Below, piece by piece: positions 1-10,229 of a stretch of 64,000 nt of DNA (position 1 is the first letter of the stretch; each line of letters starts with the position of its first letter). The notes under the pieces are model-generated. The model searched no databases, had not been told where the DNA came from, and was given only the letters and a program-made list of their open reading frames with translations. The DNA is taken from the NCBI GenBank assembly GCA_034521595.1, contig JAXHMG010000003.1:768001-832000 (forward strand), read 5' to 3'. The DNA comes from Gemmatimonadota bacterium (GTDB lineage Bacteria > Gemmatimonadota > Gemmatimonadetes > Longimicrobiales > Gaopeijiaceae). Made by a program: the position numbers and the translations under genes.

Positions 1-1809
1 TCCCGCACCTCCGCGGCGGCGAACACCGAGGGCCAGGGAAAGGCGCTGCGGATCGCGTTCTTCGGGGGTGCGGTCATGGGCCTCGCCGTCGCGGCCCTCG
101 GGCTCCTGGGGCTGGGTGTGCTCTACGTCCTCTACGCATCCAACGCGACCGTCGGCGCGGACTTCGAGAACTTCGCCGAGATCGTCTCCGGCTTCGCGAT
201 GGGGGCGAGCACGATCGCGCTGTTCGCCCGTGTCGGCGGCGGGATCTACACCAAGGCGGCGGATGTCGGGGCGGACCTCGTCGGGAAGGTCGAAGCCGGC
301 ATTCCGGAGGACGATCCCCGCAACCCCGCGACCATCGCCGACAACGTCGGAGACAACGTGGGCGACGTGGCCGGCATGGGCGCCGACATCTTCGAGTCCT
401 ACGTGGGGTCCATCGTGGCGACGATCGCGATCGCGGCCACCGCGCCGGTTCTCGTGTCGCACCGCGCGGAGGCCGTCGCGCTTCCGATCCTCACGGTCTT
501 GTTCGGCCTCCTGGCTTCGCTCCTGGCCATCGGGATGATGAAGCTCTTCGAGCGAAGCAACCCGGCGGCAGCGCTCCGCAACGTGACCTTCATCGCAGCG
601 GGCCTGTTTCTCGCCGTCATGTTCCTCGTCGTGCAGTCGCTCGGCATCACGTTCACCGACACGGAGACCGGCCGTAGTTACGCGACGATCGGTCCATGGA
701 TCGCCATCCTCGCCGGCACGTTGGTGGGCATCATGATCGGGTTGGCCACCGAGTACTACACCGCGTTCGGCCCGATCAAGAAGATCGCGGATTCGAGTGA
801 GACGGGCGCGGCGACCAACATCATCACCGGGCTCGCCGTCGGGATGGAATCCACCGTCATTCCCGTCATCCTCATCTGTGTCGCCATCGGCGTATCGTTC
901 TTCTTCGCCGGGTTGTACGGGATCGGTATCGCCGCCGTGGGAATGCTGGCCACGGTGGGTGTGACGATGTCGGTGGACGCGTACGGCCCGATCGCCGACA
1001 ACGCGGGCGGTATCAGCGAGATGGCCGGCCTCGGGCCGGAGACCCGCGAGATCACGGACTCCCTCGACGCCATCGGGAACACCACCGCGGCCATCGGAAA
1101 GGGCTTCGCGATCGGCTCGGCCGCGCTGACGGCGCTCGCCCTCTTCTCGGCCTACTCGTCGAAGGTGGGCTTGCAGGCGGCCGGGATCGATATCGTCGAT
1201 CCGGTCGTGGTGGTCGGGCTGTTCCTCGGAGGCGCGTTGCCGTTCTTCGTGGCCGCGCTCACGATGACGGCGGTCGGTCGGGCCGCGGCGGGCATGGTGG
1301 ACGAGGTCCGTCGGCAGTTCCGGGAGGTCCCGGGCATCATGGACGGCTCGGTCAAGCCGGATTCGGCCCGGTGCGTGGATATCTCGACTCGGGCGGCGCT
1401 GCGCGAGATGATCCTTCCGGGGGTCACGGCGGTGTTCGCCCCCGTGGTCGTCGGCTACGTGCTGGGTGTGGAGGCGCTGGGCGGCCTGCTGGCCGGCGCC
1501 ACGGTGACGGGCGTGCTCATGGCGCTCTTCATGGCGAACTCCGGGGGGGCGTGGGACAACGCCAAGAAGTACATCGAGGGAGGTGCGCACGGCGGTAAGG
1601 GCTCCGAGGCCCACAAGGCCGCCGTGGTCGGGGATACCGTCGGAGACCCGTTCAAGGACACGTCGGGGCCGTCCCTGAATATCCTGATCAAGCTCATGAG
1701 CGTGGTGTCGCTCGTGCTGGCGCCGTGGTTCGCACGGGTTCACGGTATCGAAGTGGACCCGGACGCCACGTCCTGGCTGACTCACCTCGTCGACACCCTC
1801 TTCGGCTAA
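1..1809 (+). CDS. hppA: Membrane-bound K+-dependent pyrophosphatase, probably Na+-translocating (5' truncated by window)
   Basis: Frame open from base 1. Motifs [72 protein letters not shown]. Confidence 0.96.
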
Positions 1810-1849: not shown

Positions 1850-3055
1850 ATGACACGGAAAGAGCCGTCCTTCGAGAACGCCCTGACGTTCGCCGCGGAC
1901 CTCATCCGAACCCCGGGCCTGTCCGGGGACGAAGGACGCGTCGCCGAGCGCGTGGAGAATGAGATGCGGGCGCTCGGCCTCGAGCGGGTGCGGATCGACG
2001 ATGTCGGAAACGTCATCGGCGTCGTGCCGGGCTCGGGGGCGGGACCTCCCATTCTCCTGGCGAGCCATCTCGACGTGGTCGCCGAAGGGGACCATGCCGA
2101 GTGGGAGGTCCCGCCGTTCTCGGGGACCGTGGAAGGCGGGTACCTGCACGGCCGAGGCGCGATGGACATCAAGGGGCCTCTCGCGGTTCAGACCTATGCT
2201 GCCGCATCCATGATCGGACGGGCGGCGGGGGACGTTGTGGTGGCCCATACCGTGCTCGAAGAGCAGGGTGGCCTGGGGATGAAAGCGTTGCTGGAGTCGG
2301 AAACCGTCGATCCCGCGTGGGTGGTGATCGGCGAAGCGACGCATGGCGACATCTGCATCGGACACCGGGGCCGGGCGGAGGTCGAAGTCCACATCCGTGG
2401 GAAGGCAGGGCACGCGAGCGAGCCGTCGCGCGCGCGAAACGCCCTGGACCTCCTCGGGGATGTCTTGGCGGCGATCCGGGCTCTGGACGAAGATCAGCCG
2501 GCGGATCCGGTGTTGGGCTCGTCCACGGCCGTCGCCACGACCGTCGATGTCGCGCCGGAGACGCGCAACGTGATCCCGGACCGTGTGCTCGTCGCAGTGG
2601 ACTGGCGGATCTTGCCCGGCGATTCCTCGGAGAGCCTGATCGAGCGTCTCGGGGCCGCGATCCGACGCCGCATGCCCGAGGTGCCGGACGGGTGGTCGGT
2701 CGACGTGAGGATCGCGTCCGTGCATCAGCGCACGTATACGGGTTTCGAGCGCGCCCGGGAGATGTACAGCCCGGGCTTCCTGATGGACCCCGAAGATCCG
2801 GCCGTGCAGGCAGCTGCTGCCGCGGTCGGTCGGCGTGACGGGTCCGATGTCCCCGCACGGGTCCGCCCATGGCGCTTCGCCACGGACGGGGGTTGGACGC
2901 GTGGCGTCCACGGAATCCCCACCATCGGCTTCGCACCCGGCGAAGAACACTTCGCCCATACCAACCGGGAACGTATCTCGGTGGACGAGTTCCGGTGGGC
3001 CCTCGAGCGCTATCCACGTCTCGTGGAGGCACTCCAGGGAGCGGGGTCGCCCTGA
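1850..3055 (+). CDS. M20/ArgE-DapE family metallo-hydrolase
   Basis: SHLDVV, GRGAMDIKG, EEQGG, GEAT and C-terminal AHTNRE metal-binding motifs. Confidence 0.88.
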   Translation: MTRKEPSFENALTFAADLIRTPGLSGDEGRVAERVENEMRALGLERVRIDDVGNVIGVVPGSGAGPPILLASHLDVVAEGDHAEWEVPPFSGTVEGGYLHGRGAMDIKGPLAVQTYAAASMIGRAAGDVVVAHTVLEEQGGLGMKALLESETVDPAWVVIGEATHGDICIGHRGRAEVEVHIRGKAGHASEPSRARNALDLLGDVLAAIRALDEDQPADPVLGSSTAVATTVDVAPETRNVIPDRVLVAVDWRILPGDSSESLIERLGAAIRRRMPEVPDGWSVDVRIASVHQRTYTGFERAREMYSPGFLMDPEDPAVQAAAAAVGRRDGSDVPARVRPWRFATDGGWTRGVHGIPTIGFAPGEEHFAHTNRERISVDEFRWALERYPRLVEALQGAGSP

Positions 3056-3138
3056 CCGGAGGACCGTGGCGCCTACCGAACCGGACGTCGTTCCGCTAGC
3101 TTGGCATGCACGCGCATTCGCGTGAAATCATTGTCCCG

Positions 3139-3217
3139 CCCCGTCCGGTCGCCTCCGCCGCAGGAGGAACCTGTGATGACGGGGCCCGTCACTCAATCAC
3201 GGACCGAGGGAACGAAG
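3139..3217 (+). promoter_or_regulatory. Structured rpsF 5' leader, candidate S6:S18 autoregulatory element
   Basis: Hairpins CCTCC/GGAGG (3152-3167, loop GCCGCA) and GTGA-TGACGG/CCGTCA-TCAC (3173-3200). CGGTC (3146-3150) can pair with GACCG (3202-3206) next to the GAGGG Shine-Dalgarno. Confidence 0.45.
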
Positions 3218-3838
3218 ATGCGGCTCTACGAGGTTGTGTACATCCTCGACCCGGCGCTCGACGAGAGCGCCGTAACCGCTAAGCTCGACAAGTTTCACGA
3301 GCTCGCGACGGCCCGCGGCGGAGAGTTGGAATCCGTCGATCACTGGGGTGTTCGCCAGTTGGCGTATCCGGTGAGCAACCTGAACCAGGGTTACTACGTC
3401 GTTGCGCAGTTCAAGGCGGAGCCGGAGGCCCTTCCCGAGTTCGAGCGGATCGTCAAGCTCGACGGGGAAGTGCTCCGTTACCTGTTGGTCCTCAACGAAG
3501 GGGAGCCGACGAACGGTCAGTCGATCATGGCGGAAGTGCATCACGCCGCTGGCGAAGAGGACGAGGACGAGGAGGAGGGCGAGGAGGAAGACGACGACGG
3601 TACGGCACCGCCCGAGTTCCAGGGTGGCGGTGGCCGCCGCCGCATGGAGGGACCGCCGGTTCTGCTCCTGAACTACAAGGACGTCGGGACGCTGTCTCGC
3701 TTTCTCACGGAACAAGGCAAGATCCTGCCCAAGCGGACCACCAAGGTGACGGCGCAGTTCCAGCGGCAGCTCGGACGCGCGGTCAAGCGCGCCCGGTATC
3801 TGGCCCTGATTCCTTACACACGGCGACAAGAGGGCTGA
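3218..3838 (+). CDS. rpsF-rpsR: Fused ribosomal proteins bS6-bS18 (single ORF; alternative in-frame start at 3176)
   Basis: aa 1-93 are S6 ([12 protein letters not shown]...[11 protein letters not shown]...GYY...VLRYL). Then an acidic linker and S18 ([25 protein letters not shown]...[19 protein letters not shown]). No stop codon between them. Confidence 0.88.
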
Positions 3839-3842
3839 CTTC

Positions 3843-4787
3843 GTGGACCGGCCGCTTCCGACGGAGTCGGATGAGCGCACGGGTCGGGGGTGGCCACGTG
3901 TGGCCGGGCTTTTCGGTGTCACGATGGCGGCGTCGGTCGTGCAGCCGAGCGTGCTCATCGCCGTGCCGTTTCTCCTCCTCGCCGCGGTACGCGGCTTGAA
4001 GGGAGCCGGACTCTTCGTCGGGGCCGTGGTTGCGATGATTCTCGCGATCTCGGGCCCCCAGGACGGCTTCTGGTTCTTGGAGCGTGCGTGGGCCGTGCTC
4101 CTGGGTGGTTGGTTCGTGGCCGTCAGCATGGCGATGCCCCGGTGGCCGCTGTCGACCAAGCTGTTGACTTCGGTCGCGGGCGCGTTCGTGGTGACCGCCG
4201 CGATGCTGGCGGCCCGCAGCGGGGCATGGGAGACGGTCGATTGGGCCATCACCAACGCGGTGGAGGGCGGTATCGCGACCACGCTCCAGGCGTTGGAGTT
4301 GCTCCGGGGCGGAGACGCGATCTCTCCGGCGTTGGCCACGGCGATTCACCAGACGGCCCGTGCCCAGACCAGCGTGTTCCCCGCGTTGATGGGGATCGCG
4401 TCGATGGCTGGCCTCGCCGTGGCATGGTGGGTTTACACCAGGCTACGGGGTGAGGGGGACCAGGCCATCGGGCCGGTCCGGAATTTTCGGTTCAACGACC
4501 ACTTGGTGTGGCTCATGATCGTGGGCCTACTCCTGGTGGTCACACGTTGGGGTGACGCGCTGGCGCGCGTCGGTTCGAACGCCGTCGTGTTCATGGGGGC
4601 GTTGTACGCGCTCCGGGGCTCAGCGGTGTTCATGTTCATTAGTGGAGGCCTGTCATTGTTCGGTTACGTGCTCCTCGCTTTGGCCCTCGTCCTTGCGGCT
4701 CCCGTCGTCGTGGGTGTTGCCATGGTCGTGGGAATAGGGGATACGTGGCTGGACGTGCGCGCACGTCTGCGCGAAACGGCCGCTTGA
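3843..4787 (+). CDS. DUF2232/YybS-like integral membrane protein
   Basis: Multi-TM hydrophobic protein ending GIGDTWLDVRAR, in the typical position between rpsR and rplI. Confidence 0.78.
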   Translation: MDRPLPTESDERTGRGWPRVAGLFGVTMAASVVQPSVLIAVPFLLLAAVRGLKGAGLFVGAVVAMILAISGPQDGFWFLERAWAVLLGGWFVAVSMAMPRWPLSTKLLTSVAGAFVVTAAMLAARSGAWETVDWAITNAVEGGIATTLQALELLRGGDAISPALATAIHQTARAQTSVFPALMGIASMAGLAVAWWVYTRLRGEGDQAIGPVRNFRFNDHLVWLMIVGLLLVVTRWGDALARVGSNAVVFMGALYALRGSAVFMFISGGLSLFGYVLLALALVLAAPVVVGVAMVVGIGDTWLDVRARLRETAA

Positions 4788-4809
4788 CGGATCCATGGTC
4801 GGAGGAACG

Positions 4810-5265
4810 ATGAAGCTCATTCTGAAGGAAGACGTCCCGAACCTGGGCGAAACCGGTGAAGTAGTGGAGGTCAAGCCGGGCTACGGACGCAACTATCTGA
4901 TTCCGCAGGACCTGGCCTACGTGGCCAGCGAGGTCAACATGAAGCGGCTCGAGGAGGAACGAGCACGCGCCGAGGAACGGGCGCGTCGCGATTTCCTCGA
5001 AGCCCGCCGCCGCGCTTCGCAGATCGAGGGAATGTCCCTGACGTTCGGAGAACGGGCGAGCGAAGACGGGAAGCTGTTCGGCTCGGTCTCCGTTGCCGAC
5101 GTCGTGGAGCGCGCGAACGTGAGCGGACTCGACTTCGAGCTGGAGAAGCGCAATATCCTTCTCGACGAGCCGCTCAAGTCCGTGGGGGTGTTTCCCGTCG
5201 GCGTGCGCCTTCACCCCGAAGTCGAGGTGGAGCTCGAGGTCCGCGTGGAGCGGGAGAACGACTGA
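4810..5265 (+). CDS. rplI: 50S ribosomal protein bL9
   Basis: MKLILKEDVPNLGETGEVVEVKPGYGRNYLIP and GKLFGSV; GGAGG Shine-Dalgarno upstream. Confidence 0.97.
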   Translation: MKLILKEDVPNLGETGEVVEVKPGYGRNYLIPQDLAYVASEVNMKRLEEERARAEERARRDFLEARRRASQIEGMSLTFGERASEDGKLFGSVSVADVVERANVSGLDFELEKRNILLDEPLKSVGVFPVGVRLHPEVEVELEVRVEREND

Positions 5266-5291
5266 TCGGTAACAAGGACGCCGCGGGGGCG

Positions 5292-5645
5292 ATGCCGTCC
5301 GACTTTCCCCGCGAGGTCGGTCGGTCGGTCGCACTGGCCCTCGAACGGAGAGCGCAGGACGTCACGGTCTTGGACCTCCAGGGCATCTCGTCCGCTACGG
5401 ACTATTTCGTCATCGCCAGCGGCACCTCCGACGTTCAGGTCAAGGCGATCGCGGAGCACGTGGTCGAAGAGCTCAAAAAGGACGGTGTACGCGTGGAGCA
5501 TGCCGAAGGCATGAACGGCGGACGCTGGGTGCTACTCGACTACATCGACTTCGTGGTGCACGTTTTCCATCCACAGGCGCGTGCCTTCTACCAGTTGGAA
5601 AATCTCTGGGGCGACGCGCCCCGCTGGGACGCACCGGCCGCCTGA
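5292..5645 (+). CDS. rsfS: Ribosome silencing factor RsfS (Iojap)
   Basis: DYFVIASG, WVLLDYIDFVVHVF, RAFYQLENLWGDA. Confidence 0.95.
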   Translation: MPSDFPREVGRSVALALERRAQDVTVLDLQGISSATDYFVIASGTSDVQVKAIAEHVVEELKKDGVRVEHAEGMNGGRWVLLDYIDFVVHVFHPQARAFYQLENLWGDAPRWDAPAA

Positions 5646-5727: not shown

Positions 5728-6747
5728 TTGATCGTCGAACTTCCTGAATGGCAAGCGTTCGCGCACGGAGCGGACTTCTGGCACCCGGACGCGTCCGAGG
5801 CGGGCCGAGTCGTCACCGTCGTGGCTCCATCCGTGACGGATCGTGACCGGTGGTCCGCGGAGCTTCTCCTGGACCTTCTCGACGAATGGAGCGAGGGGGG
5901 ACACAAGGTGATGCTGGTCGACGGCGTCTTCGAGCATCCCGCCTTGCATCGCGCGGTAGCCCTGACCAACGAGGAAGGGGCTTCGGACGCGGTCCTTTTC
6001 GGCGCGTCCGTCTCTCGAGTCGCGCGGGCCGTCCCGGACAGATCGTTCTATTTCATGGGTACCGGATCCCCGACCGGCGACCCCGGAGCGATCGCGGCGA
6101 GCCCGCGGTGGAGTCGATTGCAGCAGGGTTTCCGCGACGCCGGGGTGACCTTCGTGGTCTTCATGCGGGAGGGGTGTGCCGGTGAGGCGGAGTTCATCCG
6201 TGAGGCGGACGACATCGTGGTGTTGGCCGAGAGCCGTGACGCAGTGCCGGCGAGCGTGTCGGCGGTCGCGACGAAGGTGCGTTCGCTGGTCGGGCCGGCG
6301 TCGGACGGGACGACCTCGGACGGGCACGAAAGTGAGGTGCTGACCGAGCCGGGTGAGGCGACGTACGAGGAATTGCTCGACCCCCTCGACGACTTGTCTG
6401 GACGCGAGGGTGACGGGGTGGGGAGTTATGGACGCCACGAAGGGGCTCTCGAGGAGGCTCATGCCGTCCAGGAGCAGCCCGTGATGGACTTGAGTGGTGA
6501 GATGCCCGCCGGCACGCAAGCTGCGGCGCCCGAGGCGGCCGAGATGGAGGGCGGTGCAGGAGAAAGCGAGAATGAGCACGGCGGGAGGGCCCACCAAAGC
6601 GAGCGCGAGCCCCGCGCGGTAGGCGCCGGGCGCGCCGTGCAGGGCGCGGGGGCGGACCCCAACGCCCGCAAGAAGCTGCTTTGGGTGGCGCTCGGCGTGG
6701 TCGTGCTGGTGCTCATCGTGGTGTTGGGGGCGCTGCGGCCGGAATGA
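5728..6747 (+). CDS. Hypothetical tail-anchored protein: degenerate MinD/CpsD-like domain, acidic linker, C-terminal TM helix
   Basis: KVMLVDG...PALH...GASD...ADDIVVL resembles MinD/CpsD-type folds without a Walker A motif. Ends KKLLWVALGVVVLVLIVVLG. Its stop overlaps the smc start (ATGA). Start uncertain. Confidence 0.6.
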   Translation: MIVELPEWQAFAHGADFWHPDASEAGRVVTVVAPSVTDRDRWSAELLLDLLDEWSEGGHKVMLVDGVFEHPALHRAVALTNEEGASDAVLFGASVSRVARAVPDRSFYFMGTGSPTGDPGAIAASPRWSRLQQGFRDAGVTFVVFMREGCAGEAEFIREADDIVVLAESRDAVPASVSAVATKVRSLVGPASDGTTSDGHESEVLTEPGEATYEELLDPLDDLSGREGDGVGSYGRHEGALEEAHAVQEQPVMDLSGEMPAGTQAAAPEAAEMEGGAGESENEHGGRAHQSEREPRAVGAGRAVQGAGADPNARKKLLWVALGVVVLVLIVVLGALRPE

Positions 6748-9700
6748 AGCTCCGTGCCCTGAAGGTACACGGATTCAAGTCCTTCGCCGACAGCACCACC
6801 GTGGAGTTCCACGACGGGATCACGGCTGTCGTGGGACCGAACGGCTGTGGCAAGTCCAACATCGGAGATGCCATTCGGTGGGTGCTCGGTGAGCAGCGGG
6901 CGTCCGCCATCCGCGGCACCCGCATGGAAGAGGCCATCTTCCAAGGGACGGTCGGACGCCGTCCCGTCAACCGCGGCTCGGTGTCGCTCATCGTGAGTAA
7001 CGACGACGGATCCCTTCCGGTTCCCTTCGAGGAAGTGGAGGTGGGTCGACAGGTGTTCCGGGACGGCGGCTCCGAATACTCCATCAATCGCTCGGCGTGC
7101 CGCCTCAAGGATGTCGTGGAGCTCTGTCGCGACACCGGTCTGGGCGCGAACGCCTACTCCGTCATCGAGAACAAGATGATCGACGCGATTCTTTCGGACC
7201 GTGCCGAGGAGCGTCGGGGACTGTTCGAGGAAGCGTCCGGAATCGGGAAGTACAAGGACCGGCGTAAGGCGGCGAATAGACGGCTCGAGCGGGCGGAGAT
7301 GGACCTCCAGCGGCTGGAGGACGTAATCTCCGAGGTCGAGACCAAGGTGCGTTCTCTGGCTCGTCAGAAAGGGAAGGCACAACGGTACATGGAGCTGCGT
7401 CAACGCCGGCTCGACGTGGAAGCGACCGTGGTCCGACGCGAGATGTCGTCCCTCACGGACCGGCTGAGCCAGGTGGACCAAGAGCTCCAGGGCGATAGCT
7501 GGACGGCCGAAGGCATGCGCGCCGAGCTCCGAAAGGCGGAGGCCGAGGTCGAGTCTCTCCGGCTCAAGGAGGTGGAAGCTCAGAAGGCGCGGACCGAAGC
7601 GGCGGACGTGTTGGAGCGGACCCGCGAGAAGCTGGTCGAATGGGAGCGGGATTTAGCCGTCGCAAATGAGCGCGAGGCATATGCGGAGCGCAGGCTGGCC
7701 CGGATCGACGAGGAGCGTCGAGAGGCCCTCGAGCGGGCGGAAGCGATGGAGCGGGAGGCGGAGGAGCTCGAAGAGGAGCGGGCGAAGTGTGAAACGGAGC
7801 TTCAGGAAGCTCGCCGGAGCGCGGACGCGAAGGCGGGCGAAGCCGAGGGGGTGCGGAACGAGCTAGCCGAGGCTCGCTCGCGGGTCGAGACGGCGCAGGA
7901 ACGCACCAGGGAGATCGCACGGCGCACCGCCCAGCTACAGGGAGACGCGGAGGCGGCGGACGCGCAGGCCGAAGAGTTGGAGCGGAGGCTGGAGAAAACC
8001 CGCGAAGAGCTCGAGACCGCGACCGAGCAGCTTTCCGATCTGGCCTCCCAGGGGGACCTCTTCTCCGGCCGCCTCGATGAGCTGGCCCGGGACGTGGAAG
8101 AGGCCCACCGGGAATTCGAACGGCAGCGGTCCGAGGTCGACGAGGCCAGGGAGGCGCTCGAGAAGGCGCGGGAGGGGGAGCGCGAAGCGGTGGACCGTGC
8201 GGCGGAAATCGGTGCCCGCGTGGAGGCGCTCGAACGGTTGGAGCGGGACCAGGAAGGGGTCGAGCCCGTCGTTCGGGCCGCCTTGGATCTCGGAGACGAC
8301 GGGGTTTGGGGAACCCTCGCGGACTTCATCGCCGGTCCACCCGAGACGGTGGCGGCGGCCGAGGCCTATCTCGGCTCGGTGGCGCGTGCGCTCGTCGTCG
8401 AGGACGATGCGACGGTTCACAGGCTCGTGGACTGGTTCGCTGCGTCGTGGACGGAGGGGGGCGGCTTGACCTTGCTTCCCCTCGATCGTGTGCCGGTCGA
8501 GGAACCGGGTGGTGGCGTGCTGTTGGATGGATTGACCGTGGAGGAGCCGGCCGCGGCGTGGGTGAGGGCGCTTCTCACGGGTGTCGAGCTCGAGGGCTCG
8601 ACGGCTGGAGGTGTACCGGTCACGAGCTACCGCGGTGTCGTGCGGATGGGTAATCCAACGGGCGCATCCGGGATTCTGGAACGGAAGGAACGGTTGCGTC
8701 TGTTGCGAGCCGAGCACAACGAGGCGCTGGATGTGGCGTCCGGAGCTAGCGCGACACGGATGAGCTCCCAGGAAACCCTTTCGAAGGCCGAGGAGGAGCT
8801 CGAGAGGCTCCGGACGGCCTGGCGGAAGGCCGAAGATGGTCACCGTAAGGCCGAGGCGGAGCTCGAGGCGCAATCCGATCAGCATGGGCGTATGGATCGC
8901 CGGCGCGACGACCTGTCTCGGCAGCTCGAGGGGACGCGAGCAACGCGCGAGCGGGCCATCGAGCGTGCCCGGGAGGCCCGAGCGGAGCGGGAGACGCTCA
9001 TCGAGCAGGAATCGGGCGTCGAGGAGGAACGGGAAGCCGCGGGGAAGGCTCTCGAGGCCGTGCAGGAGCGTTGGGAAGCCGTCCGCGCCGAGGAAGCCCG
9101 CCTGGCGGTGGATGTCGCCCGCCTGGAAGGGGATTTGCGGCGACTGACCGAGAAGCTCCAGAGCTCCACCCGGGTTCGGGAGGAGGCCGGTGAACGAGCC
9201 GGCTCCCTCGACGAGGAGGAAGGGGCCTTGCGCCGCGAGCGCGAGGATCTGCGCACCCGTAGGGCGGAAGGGGAAGCCGCGATCGAACGTTTGTTCGAGG
9301 AGCGGACGGCTGCCGAGGAAGCGTTGCGAAAGCGGGAAGAAGCGTTACAGGGCGTCAGCGATGCACTCGCTGCCGCGGAACGACACGCGCGGGAAGCGCG
9401 CACCGCCGAGCGAGAGTCTTCCGATCGGCGGCACGAGCTGGAGCTCGAGCGCCAGGAGTTGACCGGGCGCGTCGAGCGGATCCGTGAGCGTCTAGAAGGG
9501 GAATGGGGTCGAGCCCTGGAATCCCTGATGGAGGAGGCGAACGAGGTCGCGGGTGACACTGAGGCGCTCCAAGAGGAGCTGACCGAGATCGTCGAGGCGC
9601 TGGAGCGCATCGGGCCGGTGAACATGCTCGCGGTCGAAGAGCACGCGGAAGAAACCGAGCGGCTCGACTTCCTCCAGGGGCAGCGGGATGACCTGATCGA

Positions 9701-10229
9701 AGCTCGCAACGACCTGCGGTCGGCCATCCGGGAGATCAATCGGACGGCGACGGACCTCTTCACGGGGACCTTCGAGGAGATTCGGCAGCACTTCCGCGAC
9801 ACGTTCGTGCGTCTCTTCGAAGGGGGCGATGCCGACATCAAGCTCGAGGATCCGGACGATCCGCTCGAGAGCCCCGTGGAGATCCATGCATCGCCGCGTG
9901 GCAAGAGGACGCAGCGCATCGACCTGCTCTCCGGCGGTGAGCGTGCGCTCACCGCTCTTTCTCTTCTGTTCGGCATCTATCTGGTGAAGCCGAGTCCCTT
10001 CTGTGTGCTCGACGAGGTCGACGCGCCTCTCGACGAGAACAACATCGGGCGGTTCATCCGACTCCTTCAGGACTTCAAGGAGCAGACGCAGTTCGTCGTC
10101 ATCACGCACAATCCGCGCACGATCGAGGCCGCGGATTGGATCTATGGGGTGACGATGGAGGAGCCTGGCGTCAGCACGATCGTGGGCGTGAAGCTCGAGG
10201 AAGCGCTCGAGGCCGCCGGCATCGCCTGA
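6744..10229 (+). CDS. smc: Chromosome segregation protein SMC
   Basis: GFKSFAD, Walker A GPNGCGKSN, long coiled coils with central hinge, LSGGE signature, LDEVDAPLD. Confidence 0.96.
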   Translation: MKLRALKVHGFKSFADSTTVEFHDGITAVVGPNGCGKSNIGDAIRWVLGEQRASAIRGTRMEEAIFQGTVGRRPVNRGSVSLIVSNDDGSLPVPFEEVEVGRQVFRDGGSEYSINRSACRLKDVVELCRDTGLGANAYSVIENKMIDAILSDRAEERRGLFEEASGIGKYKDRRKAANRRLERAEMDLQRLEDVISEVETKVRSLARQKGKAQRYMELRQRRLDVEATVVRREMSSLTDRLSQVDQELQGDSWTAEGMRAELRKAEAEVESLRLKEVEAQKARTEAADVLERTREKLVEWERDLAVANEREAYAERRLARIDEERREALERAEAMEREAEELEEERAKCETELQEARRSADAKAGEAEGVRNELAEARSRVETAQERTREIARRTAQLQGDAEAADAQAEELERRLEKTREELETATEQLSDLASQGDLFSGRLDELARDVEEAHREFERQRSEVDEAREALEKAREGEREAVDRAAEIGARVEALERLERDQEGVEPVVRAALDLGDDGVWGTLADFIAGPPETVAAAEAYLGSVARALVVEDDATVHRLVDWFAASWTEGGGLTLLPLDRVPVEEPGGGVLLDGLTVEEPAAAWVRALLTGVELEGSTAGGVPVTSYRGVVRMGNPTGASGILERKERLRLLRAEHNEALDVASGASATRMSSQETLSKAEEELERLRTAWRKAEDGHRKAEAELEAQSDQHGRMDRRRDDLSRQLEGTRATRERAIERAREARAERETLIEQESGVEEEREAAGKALEAVQERWEAVRAEEARLAVDVARLEGDLRRLTEKLQSSTRVREEAGERAGSLDEEEGALRREREDLRTRRAEGEAAIERLFEERTAAEEALRKREEALQGVSDALAAAERHAREARTAERESSDRRHELELERQELTGRVERIRERLEGEWGRALESLMEEANEVAGDTEALQEELTEIVEALERIGPVNMLAVEEHAEETERLDFLQGQRDDLIEARNDLRSAIREINRTATDLFTGTFEEIRQHFRDTFVRLFEGGDADIKLEDPDDPLESPVEIHASPRGKRTQRIDLLSGGERALTALSLLFGIYLVKPSPFCVLDEVDAPLDENNIGRFIRLLQDFKEQTQFVVITHNPRTIEAADWIYGVTMEEPGVSTIVGVKLEEALEAAGIA

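Follow-up and report, generated by a model that had tools for sequence, protein, structure and literature searches.

A fused rpsF-rpsR gene encodes bS6 and bS18 in one open reading frame throughout a family of Longimicrobiales

In Escherichia coli the genes for the ribosomal proteins bS6 and bS18 are arranged in the order rpsF-priB-rpsR-rplI, and in Bacillus subtilis as rpsF-ssb-rpsR. Analysis of 64,000 nucleotides from a Gemmatimonadota bacterium (assembly GCA_034521595.1, contig JAXHMG010000003.1, positions 768,001 to 832,000; this whole stretch is the window, numbered from its first letter) revealed a locus at 3218-3838, on the + strand, where S6 and S18 are encoded in a single open reading frame (ORF). 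It shares with the canonical bS6:bS18 system the same two Pfam families, the same gene order, a downstream rplI and an acidic C-terminal tail on S6, but here the two halves form one cistron and one polypeptide. Neither ssb nor priB lies between them at the locus, as an earlier note made from the sequence had also observed.

The canonical proteins are known as a pair. Passages of PMC4647458 (citing Held 1974; Recht and Williamson 2001) state that S6 and S18 of E. coli and Thermus form a heterodimer before binding the S15-ribosomal RNA (rRNA) complex. On the platform, the C-terminal extension of bS6 sits against bS18, according to passages of PMC7797042, which also describe U1544 of the 16S rRNA of the Flavobacterium johnsoniae ribosome as stacked between bS6 Trp100, in this extension, and bS18 Phe50. 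A literature search found no paper describing an S6-S18 fusion. The main text of Yutin et al. 2012 (PMC3353972) contains no occurrence of ‘fusion’, ‘fused’ or ‘S18’, and a Nitrospina genome paper considered as a lead to a fusion proved false, holding a table of separate genes only. The halves of the protein are plain bS6 and bS18; what differs here is the organisation as one cistron and one chain, the polyacidic tether, a PPEF motif at the border with S18 and the loss of cysteines from S18.

One gene for two ribosomal proteins

The fused rpsF-rpsR coding sequence (P0001) consists of 206 codons and a TGA stop, and its 206-residue translation contains S6 and S18 in one frame with zero internal stops. 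The Pfam profile Ribosomal_S6 (PF01250) scores 95.8 bits over aa 4-91 (cut-off 27; E 1.7e-27) and is matched from position 2 to 89 of its 90, and Ribosomal_S18 (PF01084) scores 71.2 bits over aa 151-198 (cut-off 21; E 7.5e-20) and is matched from position 5 to its last, 52. Translation and profiles agree with the earlier note, which had described a single 206-codon ORF running from S6 through an acidic spacer into S18 without a stop. Solved bS6 chains in the PDB match the first half (E down to 1e-18) and solved bS18 chains the second (E about 1e-16); no chain covering both domains occurs among the PDB matches listed (60 of 131). The predicted product is a single chain of ~23 kDa.

Four regions follow one another on the + strand. 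The bS6 domain (aa 1-97; 3218-3508), which ends at a conserved NEGEP, is delimited by PF01250, the PDB match, the confidence of a structure prediction and the ratio of nonsynonymous to synonymous substitution rates (dN/dS). The variable acidic linker (aa 98-130; 3509-3607), set apart by composition, prediction confidence and dN/dS, is what was once the tail at the S6 C-terminus; its acidic run, E113-D127 (aa 113-127; 3554-3598), follows a stretch of variable sequence (aa 98-112). A conserved junction (aa 131-147; 3608-3658), marked by dN/dS, contains PPEF and then the basic N-terminal arm of S18. The bS18 core (aa 148-206; 3659-3835), of the cysteine-free type, is defined by PF01084, the PDB match and dN/dS. 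Two internal ATGs read from the translation encode M104 in the linker (3527) and M143 in the junction (3644). The acidic run and both ATGs had been placed correctly before, whereas the GGGGRRR previously counted as part of the spacer is actually the basic arm of S18 and belongs to the most conserved segment.

The start at ATG 3218 is supported by the N-terminus MRLYEVVYI, which lines up with all relatives in the alignment, and a Shine-Dalgarno-like GAGGGA lies ahead of it at 3206-3211. A start at TTG 3101, which opens the longest ORF, was rejected; conservation of the upstream DNA is RNA-like, not codon-like. A profile search of the genome (3 contigs, 93.25% complete) gave one match to PF01250 and one to PF01084, both in the fused ORF, so the second rpsF or rpsR copy that had been raised earlier was looked for in the genome and not found.

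The linker DNA is a low-complexity run of GAG and GAC codons, and the assemblies of two relatives (G005 and G252) break there, as might be seen if a collapsed repeat concealed a stop codon; a pseudogene with working copies elsewhere would be a related explanation. Independently assembled Logan contigs from the public runs X1 (3000-3852) and X2 (3472-4010) span the linker without a single difference or gap, although these runs are possibly the source sample and check the assembly rather than supply independent biology; a contig from run X3 covers 3257-3460 only, short of the linker. Because the X1 and X2 contigs match without differences or gaps, the GAG/GAC-rich run is not collapsed, and the hidden stop envisaged in the earlier note is absent from both. 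Independent support for the fusion comes from other genomes: it is present in 114 of 114 loci from many assemblies, single-contig genomes among them. A dead gene is contradicted by purifying selection on all parts of the ORF (dN/dS, below), and working copies elsewhere by the single S6 and single S18 match. We regard an artefact or a dead gene as exceedingly improbable. In the G005 and G252 assemblies the fused gene is split over two contigs with ends within the linker, and the acidic-codon repeat seems to hamper short-read assembly.

Relatives were grouped by coded families: f1 is the window genome's own taxonomic family (order Longimicrobiales, Gemmatimonadota), f2 and f3 are sister families of the same order, and f4, f5 and f7 are outgroup families of the same class. 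In a first set of 40 relatives and the window's own genome, the gene is fused without a stop in 24 of 24 f1 loci read, which represent the window's genome and 23 of 24 f1 relatives; the other relative, G005, is broken at contig ends within the gene and was not judged. A scan of one genome per species gave 80 fused loci out of 80 (the best 80 of 304 related stretches), all with record titles of metagenome-assembled genomes (MAGs) of Gemmatimonadota, Longimicrobiales or Gemmatimonadales. Ten of ten further f1 members, whose very long linkers had produced two-piece matches, are likewise fused, among them L139 with a fused ORF of 270 aa. Both domains thus share one frame in all 114 f1 loci read, linker length notwithstanding, and the f1 relatives, which the earlier note had considered might turn out to be split, are fused.

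Two wider samples gave the same picture. In the order sample a match was found in 105 of 106 f1 genomes, and all f1 genomes are without stops among the matches listed; G209 gave no match, G252 is broken at contig ends, and G182 reaches aa 31-206 only, in a 183-aa open frame. In a phylum sample of 301 genomes, each at least 85% complete, a match was found in 47 of 47 further f1 genomes and in the window's own, with no stop in f1 among the matches listed; outside f1, every full-length single match among those listed carries one in-frame stop. Proteins of 190-217 aa that carry both Pfam domains fill >100 of the 90%-identity clusters in the protein database; their name is ‘30S ribosomal protein S6’ or, for two JGI entries, ‘ribosomal protein S6/ribosomal protein S18’. 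Where the records say ‘30S ribosomal protein S6’, hundreds of Gemmatimonadota MAGs seem, to judge from gene names, to lack S18. The tallies take in a few genomes flagged as unpublished (G025, G052, G103, G116, G166, G175, G321, G403 and G422), although no claim depends on them alone, and since the relatives are kin, the counts describe a clade-wide trait rather than independent trials. The fusion is fixed across f1, and 3218-3838 is a genuine rpsF-rpsR gene fusion that constitutes the organism's only source of bS6 and bS18.

Reading through the linker

The 114 fused loci correspond to 106 distinct proteins, of which a strict regular expression parsed 93; the remaining 13 are motif variants (PAEF, RRQRM etc.) that are visibly fused but stand outside the counts. 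In the parsed proteins the linker measures 32-124 residues, the median being 40; D and E make up 43% of it, K and R 5%. Ten loci, L133-L142 (coded genera g32, g38, g40 and g56 of f1), encode proteins of 227-295 aa with linkers of up to 124 aa, in which G, A, S, E and D abound instead of acidic residues alone; the residue equivalent to M143 is His in nine of them and Ile in L141. A connection between the acidic linker and halophily was considered and rejected; an acidic tail occurs in all families of the class that were read.

Values of dN/dS were pooled over 887 pairs of 80-98% identity, which are kin and not independent, and the linker alignments are the least reliable. The junction (aa 131-147) has the lowest value of the four regions, 0.066, followed by the S18 core (0.12) and S6 (0.14), and the linker has the highest, 0.41. 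P131, P132, R140-R142, G145 and P146 are invariant in 23 aligned sequences. Because none of the 114 loci loses the frame although linker length varies between 32 and 124 aa, translation must read through the linker, and because the junction is the most constrained part and lies upstream of the only candidate internal start, M143, it must be translated in this frame.

An S18 made mainly from ATG 3644 or nearby, with the long ORF yielding only an S6 with a long tail, would be compatible with the GAGGAG-rich, Shine-Dalgarno-like linker DNA and with the residue found at the M143 position, which is M (58) or V (9) in 67 of the 93 parsed proteins, the others having H (15), I (8), L (2) or T (1). However, H, I or T at this position in 24 of 93 excludes a family-wide start, and ATG 3644 lies 46 nt beyond the end of the acidic run, too great a distance for the run to be its ribosome-binding site. 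Moreover, no part of this frame is under stronger purifying selection than PPEF and the basic arm, which precede M143 and are therefore translated, and the frame is kept over an indel-prone linker in every locus, which would be unneeded if S18 had its own start. We consider internal initiation unlikely, appreciably more so than the proteolytic alternative discussed below. Between residue 98 and PPEF, 46 of 99 sequences contain no Met at all, and M104 (ATG 3527), considered as another internal start, was rejected as unconserved in the alignment. Because the frame is kept, the junction is constrained and a conserved internal start is lacking, S18 is made by translation through the linker from the S6 start; as judged from these comparisons, the ribosome reads from that start through the acidic tail into S18.

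Split relatives, zinc ligands and the 5' leader

The split relatives provide a plausible precursor. In all 36 split loci read (26 from f2 and f3, and 10 from f4, f5 and f7), rpsF ends in a D/E tail and a stop, and rpsR starts 0-6 nt further on, with neither ssb nor priB between the two genes in any of them. They resemble the fused locus in gene adjacency, in the D/E tail, in an S6 core that is 47-57% identical to the fused form and in a homologous leader hairpin upstream of rpsF, but differ in the stop and rpsR start that separate the genes (36/36), in the absence of PPEF and in shorter acidic tails (S6 of 112-181 aa). In the first relative set, 16 of 16 f2 and f3 loci are split with S18 in a different frame (L035 from G025 included). 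In 20 of the 36 split loci, comprising 10 of 10 from f2 and f3 and 10 of 10 from the outgroup, rpsF and rpsR are in the same frame with a single stop between them; these 20 were selected for appearing in the searches as a single match interrupted by one stop. At the end of the S6 tail, GAGGAG codons occupy the place expected for the ribosome-binding site of rpsR. In loci L123-L132 and L143-L152, where rpsF and rpsR are in frame and separated by one stop and 0-6 nt, rare read-through of the stop would already give a fused protein.

Because the split relatives show an acidic tail, a stop and a near-adjacent rpsR start, the fusion arose by loss of the rpsF stop, and because they end S6 in the same kind of tail, the linker is the old S6 tail. 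The proposed ancestral state is therefore one of adjoining rpsF and rpsR genes in which the GAGGAG codons of the S6 tail may have doubled as the ribosome-binding site of rpsR. In the same-frame split loci one substitution in the rpsF stop would yield an in-frame fusion, and on the evidence of these loci the stop was lost in the ancestor of one Longimicrobiales family. An ungapped count back from NYKD would place the former start Met of S18 on F134 of PPEF. The proposal of the earlier note that the acidic tail of S6 had become a covalent linker fits the comparison well, since a D/E tail closes S6 in each of the 36 split loci and continues in frame into S18 in each of the 114 f1 loci.

The S18 part contains no Cys in any of the 93 parsed fused proteins, in accordance with what had been noted for this one, and the zinc-binding (C+) pattern, defined by a CxxC near the N-terminus and a third Cys before the RHQR motif, is absent. 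Split S18 proteins start with M-A/R-R-x-x-K-x-C-P-x-C-E; C-P-x-C-E and a third Cys before RHQR are found in 26 of 26 f2 and f3 loci, and cysteines in 8 of 10 outgroup loci. Since the sister families retain the cysteines in 26 of 26 loci, their loss is derived in f1. The split S18 proteins of L148 (f4) and L151 (f5) also lack zinc-type cysteines (2 of 10 outgroup loci), so the cysteine-free state arose more than once in the class. In the terms used for bS18, the fused S18 is a C- form and those of the sister families are C+ forms. Makarova and colleagues are said to have treated the C+ and C- forms, in 2001, as paralogues or lineage variants of the free protein; unlike in the known C- cases, the C- state here accompanies a covalent link to S6.

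Alignment and a consensus fold of 23 fused loci point to a conserved structured 5' leader upstream of the fused gene (3135-3217, + strand). In its outer helix CCC (3135-3137) pairs with GGG (3208-3210) of the Shine-Dalgarno-like GAGGGA; GCCCCGTC (3138-3145) and GACGGGGC (3178-3185) close a variable hairpin, and CCGT (3186-3189) pairs with ACGG (3199-3202) in a second, small one. The pattern common to the 23 loci reads CCCGCTCCG, variable hairpin, CGGGGCCCGT, loop, ACGGACCGAGGGA, ATG. Pairing is observed in 96.5% of cells, against 29-50% when the partners are slid, both partners have changed in five pairs, and none of 500 shuffles attains the observed score. The single-sequence minimum free energy fold has the same topology with an unexceptional energy (z = -0.37), and an Rfam scan of 2800-5400 at E <= 1 matched no family. 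By a loose regular expression, 14 of 16 loci of the sister families have the hairpin motif ahead of their split rpsF, and the two misses resemble compensated variants. Because the motif also stands upstream of split rpsF in the sister families, the leader predates the fusion. The S6:S18 heterodimer is the effector of the rpsF leader in the passages of PMC4647458 concerned, and the structure described here may be a lineage-specific form of this S6:S18-responsive autoregulatory leader.

A proposed tethered pair and its meaning

AlphaFold2 (AF2) was run on the fusion with a 23-sequence alignment. The predicted local distance difference test score (pLDDT) is 78-92 for S6 (aa 1-90), about 31-33 for the linker, below 50 for aa 95-157 and 52-67 for the S18 helices. 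The linker is thus predicted to be disordered, and the result fits a disordered tether with an S18 that folds on its partners. With at least 32 disordered residues and a 17-residue arm, and with the C-terminal region of bS6 lying against bS18 in solved ribosomes, the tether should be able to bridge the domains.

A mechanism is proposed in which the single chain, consisting of the S6 domain, a disordered polyacidic tether of 32-124 residues, the conserved PPEF and basic arm, and the S18 core, folds so that its two halves would form the usual S6:S18 pair. The fused chain would then join the 16S central domain, or platform, as a ready-made and strictly 1:1 unit, with the acidic tether looping out into the solvent. 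The covalent link could make the zinc-binding cysteines of S18 dispensable, and the structured leader, by hiding the Shine-Dalgarno site, probably retains the autoregulation known for S6:S18. Because its C-terminus is not free, the fused S6 would not be extendable by RimK-type glutamylation. A fixed 1:1 stoichiometry may be the selected benefit. From the sequence comparisons, we put the probability that an intact single S6-S18 chain is present in the ribosome at a little under 80%.

Several points weigh against this proposal. The invariant PPEF, which lies exactly at the border between linker and S18, is the chief feature that the proposal does not account for, and it could mark a site of processing. 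The codon at the M143 position is ATG or GTG in 67 of 93 proteins, making an internal start possible in some members. AF2 gave no confident relative placement of the two domains (predicted template modelling score 0.54; S18 pLDDT 52-67), and the claim that the tether spans them rests on linker length, not on measured coordinates. The loss of Cys is not strictly coupled to the fusion, because two of the ten split outgroup S18s also lack Cys. Finally, all f1 members are uncultured MAGs by their record titles.

The first of these points leads to the strongest alternative, a processed polyprotein, in which a protease would cleave the finished fused chain within the linker or next to it, leaving separate bS6 and bS18 in mature ribosomes. 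Dedicated proteolytic maturation of a bacterial ribosomal protein is known for bL27 of Firmicutes. The linker is predicted by AF2 to be disordered and exposed, and the new, invariant PPEF at the linker/S18 border, in the most constrained segment, is the best argument for cleavage. However, the conservation of PPEF and the basic arm is equally expected if the arm binds rRNA, and the locus has no linked protease gene: around it lie an M20 peptidase gene (upstream, on its own), DUF2232, rplI and rsfS; the M20 family is of the exopeptidase or amidohydrolase type. As nothing in the sequence demands it, we consider cleavage improbable, although it is a more serious contender than internal initiation.

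Returning to the intact chain, a more far-reaching reading joins its unusual features. An acidic loop of 32-124 residues, anchored at both ends on the 30S platform beside the bS6/bS18 groove, which in Bacteroidota holds the 3' tail of 16S rRNA and the anti-Shine-Dalgarno sequence, might act as a built-in electrostatic gate on the access of mRNA or of the anti-Shine-Dalgarno sequence, giving the fusion a role beyond stoichiometry. It would be a hard-wired counterpart of the polyglutamylation of S6 by RimK, with PPEF and the basic arm docking the loop and replacing the zinc knuckle of S18. This idea is speculative, and we judge it rather doubtful, slightly more so than cleavage.

The surroundings of the fused gene were assigned by Pfam. 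An M20 peptidase gene (1850-3055) lies upstream. Downstream, a DUF2232 membrane protein gene (PF09991, E 1.9e-09; 3843-4787, + strand) stands between the fused gene and rplI (bL9; Ribosomal_L9_N and Ribosomal_L9_C; 4795-5265, + strand), which is directly followed by rsfS, encoding the ribosome silencing factor (5292-5645). The usual downstream partner of rpsR, rplI, comes here after the DUF2232 gene; the absence of ssb is common to the split relatives in the phylum. Judged from reading the sequence, an ORF at 1-1809 (+ strand), cut off at the window start, is membrane pyrophosphatase-like and a 1182-aa ORF at 6681-10229 (+ strand) has an SMC-type look; both seem ordinary.

Fusion of S6 to S18 is not confined to f1 but turns up sporadically in other bacteria. 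Of the 150 best representatives at 50% identity, 37 contain the two domains. About 28 of these 37 belong to other lineages; they show the same order of S6 then S18 in one chain of 155-266 aa, but are at most 50% identical to P0001 (most 28-39%), have shorter, basic or mixed linkers of 7-109 aa and form clusters at 90% identity of 1-3 members, compared with >100 clusters for the f1 fusion. Examples that are 28-39% identical to P0001 are P0146, P0170, P0173, P0184, P0190, P0195, P0206, P0210, P0211, P0240 and P0259. Several of the other-lineage fusions have proteobacterial-looking S6 N-termini, and the very short P0171, P0223 and P0142 may be gene-calling artefacts. Because these fusions are 28-50% identical with non-acidic linkers, and because split intermediates surround f1 in its phylum, they are probably events independent of the f1 fusion. 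Fusion would accordingly be a recurrent type of event, of which f1 is the largest and best-documented clade among those seen, with the precursor preserved in its sister families.

The family thus offers a natural single-chain version of a textbook ribosomal heterodimer, present family-wide and with its evolutionary precursor still visible in sister families. It raises the question of what is gained by covalent linkage, whether a compulsory 1:1 ratio, a dimer formed in advance or the ability to do without the S18 zinc site, and of how autoregulation works when the effector is a single chain. It also raises the question of what role a long polyacidic tether plays on the platform, near the mRNA exit and the anti-Shine-Dalgarno sequence; if the tether were an electrostatic gate, the ribosomes of f1 would have a lineage-specific mode of initiation control.

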